IMG/VR virus record: IMGVR_UViG_3300002036_000006
From: a virus
Strand: one strand, 5' to 3'
DNA length: 64,000 bases
Shown: positions 5,088 to 14,772 of the stretch, piece after piece
How positions within the stretch are numbered: the stretch's first letter is position 1
Layout: every line of letters starts with the position of its first letter
Position numbers and translations under genes: made by a program
The notes under the pieces: model-generated
The model's database searches: none
What the model was told of the DNA's origin: nothing
Seen by the model: the letters and a program-made list of their open reading frames with translations, nothing else

Positions 5088-5161
5088 ACCTAGGTAGCTC
5101 AGTTGGTAGAGCGCTCGCCAGATTTAGCGAGAGGTTGGTGGTTCGAGTCCATCCCTAGGTA
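5088..5161 (+). tRNA. tRNA-like gene with 8-nt anticodon loop (CAGAUUUA), no CCA
   Basis: acceptor ACCTAGG/CCTAGGT; D arm GCTC-AGTTGGTA-GAGC; anticodon stem CTCGC/GCGAG; T loop TTCGAGT. Confidence 0.7.
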
Positions 5162-5173
5162 CAATTAATTTAT

Positions 5174-5254
5174 CCCGTTGTCGTCTAAAATGGTAGGATA
5201 GTTGCGCGTTTAGTCGCTTCAGATGTAAGGTTCGAATCCTTACCAACGGGACCA
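5174..5254 (+). tRNA. tRNA-like gene with degenerate anticodon arm and encoded CCA
   Basis: acceptor CCCGTTG/CAACGGG; 6-bp T stem GTAAGG/CCTTAC around TTCGAAT; ends ACCA. Confidence 0.65.
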
Positions 5255-13167: not shown

Positions 13168-13223
13168 ATCAAAGGCGCATGTGTTGCGACAGAAATAATA
13201 GAAAACAAACGTGGAGAATAAAG

Positions 13224-13790
13224 GTGAAATTATATACTCGTGTAGCTCAAACGGTTAGAGCGTTCGCTAGATTAGCGATAGGTTGGGCGGTTCGAATCCC
13301 CCCACGAGTACCATTCTTTGAGACTCGGTACTGCCCTCACGATGTTGCTAAGTCTATGGTTGAGGAGTGTTGCTTCCCCTTTAGGCAAGGCGTGAGATTT
13401 CTAGAACCTAGCGCTGGCACTGGAGGTATATCAGATCTAATATATCTTTACCACGAAGACGTCACTGCGATAGAGTTGCATGGGCCTCACTTCGATAAGC
13501 TAAAAAACAAACCATACAAAACAATACGAAGGGACTTCCTTACCATTGAAGAGAGCGAGGTGGGCAGTTTCGATTACATAATCTCCTGCCCACCTTTCGA
13601 TACAGTGTCCCACCTAGATCACATGAAGACACTGCTTCGCAATAACGGTCAGATCATAGCTCTAGTTATGGATAAGTGTATCGATTCATATTGGAGGCAG
13701 TTCTATACCGAGTTAAACCTAGACTTTAAAGCGCCAAGCGGGGAGTTATTGAGATGTGGTATCGTAAGGTATTCGTATGGAGACAGCTAG
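13224..13790 (+). CDS. class I SAM-dependent methyltransferase-like protein (amino-MTase motifs)
   Basis: FLEPSAGTG motif I, AIEL, RRDFL, FDYIISCPPF motif IV variant; GGAG-7nt-GTG start at 13224. Confidence 0.75.
   Translation: MKLYTRVAQTVRAFARLAIGWAVRIPPRVPFFETRYCPHDVAKSMVEECCFPFRQGVRFLEPSAGTGGISDLIYLYHEDVTAIELHGPHFDKLKNKPYKTIRRDFLTIEESEVGSFDYIISCPPFDTVSHLDHMKTLLRNNGQIIALVMDKCIDSYWRQFYTELNLDFKAPSGELLRCGIVRYSYGDS
13236..13313 (+). tRNA. tRNA-like element, nominal anticodon GAU, with CCA, inside the MTase ORF
   Basis: acceptor ACTCGTG/CACGAGT + ACCA; D arm GCTC/GAGC; loop TAGATTA (A33, U37 non-canonical); TTCGAAT. Confidence 0.75.
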
Positions 13791-14217: not shown

Positions 14218-14772
14218 ATGTCAGGCTACATTGAAATATCTAGGGCTGCTGTTTATGCAGCTATGGCTCATGGAGCTATAGGTCATCAAAGAAAATACAC
14301 TGGCGTACCATACATCGAGCACCCAGCTAGGGTTGCTAGACTTGTAGCTGAATACTGTGGCGACGACTATAAGATGATAGCTGCTGCTTGGCTTCATGAC
14401 GTGGTTGAAGATACAGACATCAAGCTAGATGAAATAGTAATGTGCTTTGGCGAGAATATTGCTGGTCTTGTTAATGATCTAACAGATGTTAGCAAGCCGG
14501 AAGATGGTAATCGTTCTGAGAGGAAAGCAATAGATCGTGCTCACACTGCTGCTGCATCAGATAGGGCAAAGACTATCAAGCTGTGCGACTTAATCGACAA
14601 CACTTCCGACATACTCAGCAACGATAGAAAGTTTGCTGCCACTTATGTCAAAGAAAAAATTCTATTACTTGATGTGCTGCGAGGGCCGACTGTTCCAGTT
14701 GACCTTCTTAAAAGAGCCAATGATCAGGTGCAAGAAGCTAAACAAATATTAACTCAAGAGGGGTTCATGTAA
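14218..14772 (+). CDS. HD-domain (p)ppGpp/alarmone hydrolase-like protein (RelA/SpoT hydrolase, Mesh1-like)
   Basis: AH..QRKY.G.PYIEHP..VA, AAWLHDVVEDT, LTD, IKLCD.IDN. Confidence 0.85.
   Translation: MSGYIEISRAAVYAAMAHGAIGHQRKYTGVPYIEHPARVARLVAEYCGDDYKMIAAAWLHDVVEDTDIKLDEIVMCFGENIAGLVNDLTDVSKPEDGNRSERKAIDRAHTAAASDRAKTIKLCDLIDNTSDILSNDRKFAATYVKEKILLLDVLRGPTVPVDLLKRANDQVQEAKQILTQEGFM

Follow-up and report, generated by a model that had tools for sequence, protein, structure and literature searches.

A small phage methyltransferase very probably starts upstream of a genuine tRNA-like structure

We analysed a stretch of 64,000 nt (the window) from the virus record IMGVR_UViG_3300002036_000006, and it seems to belong to a large uncultured marine phage. 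The stretch carries many small early-type genes on the plus strand, a structural block on the minus strand, and a tRNA cluster at 62.6-63.9 kb. On the plus strand, a methyltransferase ORF holds a tRNA-like cloverleaf near its 5' end and is followed by a cupin gene (Table 1). A blastn search of GenBank phages with the region gave no match, and no promoter-like site was found upstream of the element in the window. Related loci and proteins are given below by L and P numbers, respectively.

Table 1. Position of the features of the methyltransferase gene and its tRNA-like element (window coordinates unless a locus is named)
Feature	Position	Strand	Basis or remark
Shine-Dalgarno-like GGAG	13213..13216	+	7 nt before GTG 13224
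GTG, likeliest start codon, 12 nt upstream of the element	13224..13226	+	start upstream in 4/4 fused lineages
Methyltransferase ORF, 188 aa: 4 leader codons, 26 tRNA-encoded codons, 158-aa Rossmann core	13224..13790	+	
tRNA-like cloverleaf, 78 nt, with encoded CCA; ORF codons 5-30	13236..13313	+	ARAGORN, Rfam, covariation
Acceptor stem, 7 bp	13236-13242 with 13303-13309	+	
D stem	13245-13248 with 13258-13261	+	
Anticodon stem	13263-13267 with 13275-13279	+	
Anticodon loop TAGATTA, non-canonical (A33, U37)	13268..13274	+	alignments; core YAGA kept in all relatives
T stem	13285-13290 with 13298-13302	+	
Bulged C, 5' strand of the T stem	13288..13288	+	alignments
Codons PFFETRYCP; the first, CCA, is the 3' end of the element	13311..13337	+	alignment A1
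ATG, Met60 of the 203-aa ORF; rejected start, without Shine-Dalgarno sequence	13356..13358	+	column comparison
SAM-binding motif I, LEPSAGTG	13401..13424	+	invariant columns, A1 and A5 (LEPSAGxG)
Catalytic motif IV variant SCPPF	13584..13598	+	S136-F140 invariant in A1
Cupin gene, cysteine-dioxygenase-like phage family	13754..14203	+	PHROG 4786, E 3.8e-29
Split tRNA-like elements of distant relatives	L019:291-530; L020:303-524; L021:623-828		

The methyltransferase and cupin genes adjoin in every relative examined. In the window the cupin gene overlaps the 3' end of the methyltransferase gene by 37 nt (13754-13790), the same overlap is present in L001, L004, L010, L012, and L015, and the pair recurs in L020 and L021 with overlaps of 8 and 14 nt, respectively. 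The 37-nt overlap kept in the close family suggests, at the level of gene arrangement, translational coupling of a two-enzyme unit. Downstream of this module the window carries a gene for an HD_4 (RelA/SpoT-type) phosphohydrolase (14218-14772), and in L003 an RtcB RNA ligase is encoded two genes further down (L003:1300-2481). Together with the tRNA-like RNA, these two genes hint at an RNA repair or anti-defence neighbourhood.

ARAGORN called a tRNA-Ile(GAT) at the site of the element, CCA included, and the Rfam tRNA model RF00005 matched it with 51.6 bits (E 1.7e-9; gathering score 29). The nucleotides of the tertiary fold (U8, A14, G18-G19, T54-T55-C56, A58, and C61) are all present and invariant in alignments A2-A4. 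These results agree with the preliminary description of this DNA, where a cloverleaf with acceptor and D arms, a 3' CCA, and an A33/U37 loop had been recognised. The anticodon loop and the T stem depart from the tRNA pattern: instead of U33 and a purine at position 37, all relatives have A33 and either U or C at 37, and the T stem is not a regular one of 5 bp, having a bulged C at 13288. Since the element has the structure of a tRNA except in the form of its anticodon loop and T stem, we call it, on sequence criteria, tRNA-like and not tRNA-Ile. With A33 and a pyrimidine at 37, it is unlikely to be an ordinary decoder. The anticodon loops of some relatives are 8 nt long and those of others hold an insert of 140-170 nt. 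ARAGORN found no tmRNA in the window.

Two other tRNA-like sequences lie in the window. The one at 5088-5162 is a paralogue of the 13236 element with an 8-nt loop, CAGATTTA, and without an encoded CCA; ARAGORN assigns it the four-base anticodon gatt, and the split elements of L019 and L021 have exactly its T arm, GGTGGTTCGAGTCCATC. The one at 5173-5254 ends with a CCA and was not called by ARAGORN. Neither is fused to an ORF, the next gene running from 5280.

No Pfam or NCBIfam model reaches its cut-off for the methyltransferase; PHROG 6263, 'DNA methyltransferase', matches it with E 4.3e-15. A profile search retrieved 4551 superfamily relatives, only three of them at E ≤ 1e-30. In the AF2 model, residues 31-188 form a Rossmann methyltransferase with pLDDT >90 and the tRNA-encoded residues 1-30 score 52-73; the tRNA-encoded peptide is probably a variable, unstructured N-terminal tail. 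Among solved folds, the RNA m6A enzymes METTL5 and PH1948 come nearest (TM ~0.6), together with M.TaqI and M.BseCI, which are matched over their catalytic domain only (TM by target 0.22-0.31). According to the AF2 model and the fold comparison, a DNA target-recognition domain is absent and the 158-aa Rossmann core stands alone. Similarity to Erm/KsgA is weak, covering ~60-90 N-terminal residues at E 1e-3 to 1e-5, far under cut-offs. Membership of these rRNA adenine dimethylases was rejected, there being no full-length match that includes their C-terminal RNA-binding domain.

PFFETRYCP matches motif X (FxTP-like) of gamma-class enzymes. FFETRYCP lies at the same distance from motif I as the F(F/Y)PTP of the broader superfamily. 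Motif IV, compared with (D/N/S)PP(Y/F), keeps PPF with a Cys directly before it, and distant members have MCPP. Together, motifs and model identify the protein as a predicted amino-methyltransferase core with motifs X and I and a variant of motif IV, whose substrate may be DNA or RNA. Two groups of matches stand apart. P0015, of 2667 aa, contains 31 separate matches to the C-terminal part of the profile (positions 137-158) and appears to be a repeat protein built from a short methyltransferase segment. The tblastn matches that start in the tRNA-encoded residues, from Vibrio 1.211.A, Thalassomonas BA3, and Aeromonas phiARM81mr, were discarded as irrelevant, being methyltransferase domains within giant virion proteins without a tRNA.

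The methyltransferase frame is open from GTG 13224 through the element to the TAG at 13788-13790, as had been noted in the preliminary description together with the GGAG before the GTG. It is the only phase open through the window element, the other two being closed; by comparison, 12 of the 39 frames across 13 other tRNAs are open (~31% by chance). The product of one gene caller, P0001 (188 aa), begins at GTG 13224, and ATG 13179 is an in-frame alternative further upstream. Neither in the window nor in its fused relatives is there an in-frame ATG, GTG, or TTG inside the element or between it and ATG 13356, and the fused lineages have no near-cognate start codon in common from the element to Met60. 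Because no in-frame start lies inside the element or before Met60, translation must begin upstream of the element. The alternative offered earlier was a start at ATG 13356, admittedly without a clear Shine-Dalgarno sequence. We likewise found none before 13356, and this start was rejected: it would remove a conserved, selected motif, and the Met of the close family is replaced at that column by F, I, A, L, or V in distant members.

The close set comprised thirteen homologues and their contigs, which fall into two layouts. In the fused layout (window, L001/L002, L003, and L007/L009), the CCA of the element is the Pro codon of PFFETRxCP and there is no spacer. These are four diverged lineages with 57-64% protein identity; six assemblies, made from different samples, have the layout, which excludes an artefact of assembly. 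The start codon lies 12 (window), 13 (L001), 15 (L003), or 13 nt (L007) before the element, which, owing to a D-loop indel, comes in two lengths: 78 nt (window and L003) and 77 nt (L001 and L007). Leader plus element make 90, 90, 90, or 93 nt, always a multiple of three, so that the indel is matched by the position of the start codon. In all four lineages only the methyltransferase phase is open through the element, a count to be read knowing that they share ancestry and are not four independent trials. The Shine-Dalgarno sequence is good only in the window and L007 (AAGGA-N8-ATG, with a stop directly before), and weak or absent in L001 and L003.

In the separate layout, that of a sister clade (L004/5/6/8, L010/11, L012, L014, and L015), the same tRNA, with the loop TAGATTA or the 8-nt loop TAGATTAA, is preceded in several lineages by a promoter-like TTGACA-N17-TAAATA and is followed by a 22-30-nt spacer with a Shine-Dalgarno sequence and then by ATG; the proteins start MSRPFFET. 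The frame in the phase of the CCA is open in two of the five separate forms and closed in L010, L012, and L014, in the first two by the TAG of the loop itself. This TAG is out of the methyltransferase frame in the window, and in fused forms it is the bulged nucleotide of the T stem that shifts it out of frame. The bulge is found in 4/4 fused and 0/5 separate-form lineages. It was rejected as a universal mark of fusion: L013, an outgroup with the separate layout, appears bulged nearby, and L019-L021 have no bulge. A frame broken in relatives, with a start downstream of the tRNA, had been named in the preliminary description as evidence against read-through; it occurs only in the sister clade (frame closed in 3/5) and not in the window's own kind. 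The proposed check on conservation of frame and pairing came out in favour of an ORF read through a genuine tRNA-like structure, the frame being open in 4/4 fused lineages and the pairing kept with compensatory changes.

Some observations concern individual loci. A promoter-like TTGACA-N17-TAAATA lies directly upstream of the tRNA at L001:3962-4000 (there with TAAAGA), L004:3853-3900, and L010:2301-2345, and in the three it is accompanied by a conserved AATTATATT. The L001 start codon would be only a few bases from the predicted transcript start, and its mRNA may thus be nearly leaderless. At L015:2303-2387, a tRNA of 85 nt that was called as Met(CAT) and has a long extra arm directly precedes the gatt-loop tRNA. 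The 'TAG=Q' flag of L014 was traced to the gene caller reading past a normal stop and not to recoding.

Both the codons and the fold bear marks of selection. At the nine codons of PFFETRxCP, pairs of fused lineages differ by 4-7 synonymous and 0-2 non-synonymous changes, and among the four lineages pN is 0-0.09 and pS 0.71-1.24. Such purifying selection on the codons right after the CCA implies that PFFETRxCP is translated. In the fused-lineage cloverleaf, 98.8% of the pair cells are standard pairs, and 7 of the 21 pairs have changed on both sides, none on one side only. As a control, sliding the partners by 1-3 columns brought pairing down to 33-57%. Pairing was kept although synonymous sites are saturated, and it behaves alike in the separate forms. 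The peptide encoded by the tRNA is not conserved as protein. Judging from the alignments, the same bases are under the constraint of an RNA structure and of a reading frame.

The coupling extends beyond the close set. Among distant fused or split lineages, the check at the DNA level covers L019, L020, and L021. Their tRNA-like elements have D and T arms and acceptor strands that pair without a mismatch, and each is split in the anticodon loop by an insert of 140-170 nt that holds the Shine-Dalgarno sequence and ATG of the methyltransferase. From there the ORF crosses the T arm and 3' acceptor strand and, past the CCA, enters the enzyme, with 5 (L019), 4 (L020), or 2 nt (L021) from CCA to motif X and no start codon between; in L021 there is no canonical start from the CCA to motif I. 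No Rfam intron or other family was found in the split elements, whose inserts are unlike one another in sequence, and minimum free energy folds of 200-nt stretches were no better than those of shuffles.

The T arm GGTTCGANTCC leaves a signature in the proteins, always 34-36 residues before motif I. It is translated VRIP in the window's group, GSSP or GSNP in P0018, P0020, P0023, P0025, and P0027, and WFES in P0016, P0017, and P0024, distant members thus reading the tRNA-like 3' half in the other two frames. From these signatures we infer read-through in P0016, P0020, P0023, P0024, and P0027; a search of viral contigs for the DNA of P0020 and P0027 did not find it. P0053, P0134, and P0163 have degenerate versions of the T arm, and in several distant proteins no Met occurs from the tRNA-encoded part to motif I. 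In the outgroup L013, a different tRNA, Phe-like, precedes a spacer and ATG. In the broader superfamily, 160 loci were examined for a tRNA-like 3' end beside the gene, and only L042, a further member of the small subfamily, has a complete one (T arm, 3' acceptor strand, and CCA); at L027 and L164, T-loop-like pattern matches fall inside coding sequence. As far as these loci tell, the tRNA-like coupling is specific to the small methyltransferase family and recurs within it.

In the best protein tree, the separate clade (99/99) is nested within the fused forms, L001, L007, and the separate forms grouping with 98/98. This topology suggests that the fusion is ancestral and that the spacer and own start are derived; a monophyletic fused group was not rejected by the AU test (p 0.077). 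The opposite route, a fused form arising by deletion between CCA repeats in a separate-form ancestor, is not favoured by the tree, to be read with that same AU result. Whichever the polarity, fusion has lasted through deep divergence.

Since the codons after the CCA are selected, no other start is available, the frame arithmetic tracks the tRNA length, and paired bases change in compensation, we consider it highly likely that the ORF is read through the tRNA-like element in translation. The ORF very probably starts upstream of a genuine tRNA-like structure, as frame and fold together indicate. Translation would run from GTG 13224, or possibly ATG 13179, straight through the 78-nt cloverleaf, whose bases would have two uses, as a selected RNA structure and as codons 5-30, the CCA becoming the Pro that opens the conserved N-terminal motif.

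For the fate of the transcript, we lean slightly towards a model in which read-through is combined with a choice, each transcript giving either the RNA or the enzyme. The determinants of RNase P are kept (7-bp acceptor stem, elbow nucleotides of the T and D loops, U at -1, discriminator A, and encoded CCA), and an AU-rich stretch follows the CCA. From general knowledge of bacterial tRNA processing, a folded transcript would be cleaved at either end of the element, losing its start codon by the 5' cut or having it parted from the catalytic domain by the 3' cut. A translated transcript would instead be held unfolded by ribosomes that load no more than 12 nt upstream. Any one RNA molecule would thus become tRNA-like RNA or enzyme message, never both, and the balance would be set by ribosome loading against cloverleaf folding; such a choice might act as the regulatory switch suggested in the preliminary description. 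Against this explanation, ribosomes would have to unwind a stable cloverleaf that begins 12 nt past the start codon. Nor can the either-or logic be the whole story of the family, because in L019-L021 the start codon lies inside the element and a 5' cut would not remove it.

The split relatives fit better with another reading. The ORF would again be translated through the element, but the cloverleaf would act solely in cis, as part of the mRNA, and no functional RNA would be released from it. Its role might be to stabilise the 5' end, to slow translation, or to serve as an operator for the enzyme itself, which would then perhaps be a methyltransferase that binds tRNA or other RNA. We regard this reading as possible but rather unlikely. 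In its favour, every relative has an irregular anticodon loop (A33, pyrimidine 37, 7-8 nt), the loop insert of L019-L021 with its Shine-Dalgarno sequence and ATG is hard to square with a released tRNA, and the element is always at the 5' end of this one gene family; moreover, the weak Erm/KsgA similarity and the METTL5-like fold make an RNA substrate possible. However, the sister-clade tRNA resembles an ordinary tRNA gene, standing alone behind the promoter-like TTGACA-N17-TAAATA and parted from the methyltransferase gene by a spacer, and the elbow nucleotides and encoded CCA, which are kept, would not be needed by a pure mRNA structure. A more specific proposal is that the element is a dedicated RNA partner of a methyltransferase without recognition domain, either a substrate-mimic operator or an RNA cofactor or specificity element, which seems to us quite doubtful. 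If true, the family would be an RNA-dependent methyltransferase module with its RNA part and protein N-terminus in the same nucleotides. Its functional RNA surface would then be the variable region of the anticodon loop, which always opens with YAGA and comprises 7 nt, 8 nt, or a 140-170-nt insert.

Explanations that dispense with read-through, or with a living RNA, fare worse. That tRNA and methyltransferase are independent neighbours, with the protein starting at ATG 13356 and the frame open by chance, is very improbable: Met60 is invariant in the close family, three gene callers began there (the 142-aa products P0005, P0011, and P0012), and the chance rate of open frames through tRNAs given above is not small, but the 15 codons from the tRNA to Met60 are under purifying selection in the fused lineages and match the FxTP-type motif X kept superfamily-wide upstream of motif I, the sister-clade proteins with their MSRPFFET start just upstream of that motif, and the downstream ATG lacks both a Shine-Dalgarno sequence and, in P0016, P0024, and P0025, a Met at its column. 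It is scarcely credible that the message loses the tRNA by excision and religation, or that ribosomes bypass it from the 5' to the 3' Arg codon of the acceptor stem, which would leave the protein without the tRNA-encoded residues. The RtcB ligase gene two genes downstream in L003 and the Arg-Val-like codons of both acceptor strands would suit such a mechanism; yet without the 77 nt of the tRNA the 13-nt leader of L001 or L007 would be out of frame, a bypass does not need the open frame found in 4/4 lineages, and the Arg pair of L003, CGT and CGG, is not read by a single tRNA under the usual wobble rules. Equally hard to believe is a dead relic, a tRNA gene swallowed by the ORF and now no more than a linker peptide. 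The non-canonical loop, the bulged T stem, and the low AF2 confidence for the encoded peptide –not obviously a functional domain– would be expected of it, against which stand seven compensatory pair changes without unpaired drift at saturated synonymous sites, the lack of protein-level conservation of the encoded peptide, and the use of other frames by other lineages.

Several known systems resemble parts of this arrangement. In tmRNA (SsrA), one RNA also joins a tRNA-like domain (acceptor stem, T arm, and CCA) with a translated frame, and L019-L021 follow its order of 5' acceptor strand, insert with start region, T arm, and 3' acceptor strand. The tmRNA frame lies between the tRNA-like halves, has no start codon, and ends before the T arm, and the CCA is a free, charged 3' end. 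Here, in contrast, the frame has its own Shine-Dalgarno sequence and start and crosses the T arm, acceptor strand, and CCA into a 158-aa enzyme. We rejected tmRNA membership for these reasons –a CCA internal to an ORF with its own start signals– and on the ARAGORN result.

In tRNA-mRNA co-transcripts (E. coli thrU-tufB and mitochondrial tRNA punctuation), RNase P and 3' processing split one transcript, and the sister clade (L004, L010, L012, L014, and L015) looks exactly like this layout. The tRNAs of those systems share at most a few bases with the coding region, whereas here the frame contains the complete cloverleaf and the message would not survive processing. SSV1-type integrase genes with a tRNA-derived attP likewise have tRNA gene sequence read in frame in a viral gene. 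That attP is a 3' fragment identical to a host tRNA gene, placed in the integrase gene and used for DNA recombination. Here the gene is a methyltransferase, no integrase is nearby, and the cloverleaf is whole, with compensatory changes that imply selection on RNA structure.

The thrS leader, bound by ThrRS, and the binding of ErmC to its own mRNA are similar in having a tRNA- or substrate-like 5' mRNA structure for a nucleic-acid-binding enzyme; these mimics are partial structures in untranslated leaders. Rickettsia palindromic elements share the principle of a sequence selected or spread for its nucleic-acid structure and tolerated as extra codons. They are multicopy mobile repeats in loops of many genes, unlike the single-copy tRNA homologue fixed here at the 5' end of one gene family. 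A limited search of full-text literature found no description of a complete tRNA fold translated in a phage or bacterial ORF.

Phage annotation holds tRNA genes and protein genes to be mutually exclusive. The gene callers either cut this enzyme at Met60, with loss of a motif of the catalytic domain, or silently translated the tRNA, which is a warning to pipelines that annotate tRNAs and ORFs. The locus also offers a tractable system for the competition of ribosome loading with RNA folding and RNase P cleavage, and a lead to an unexplored phage early-gene module –a tRNA-like RNA, a minimal amino-methyltransferase, and a cupin– among genes of anti-defence type. If the read-through is true, this would be a natural case of a complete, structurally selected tRNA fold that is also translated and has been maintained over deep divergence, and a translated tRNA fold would have been reached in all three reading frames within one gene family.
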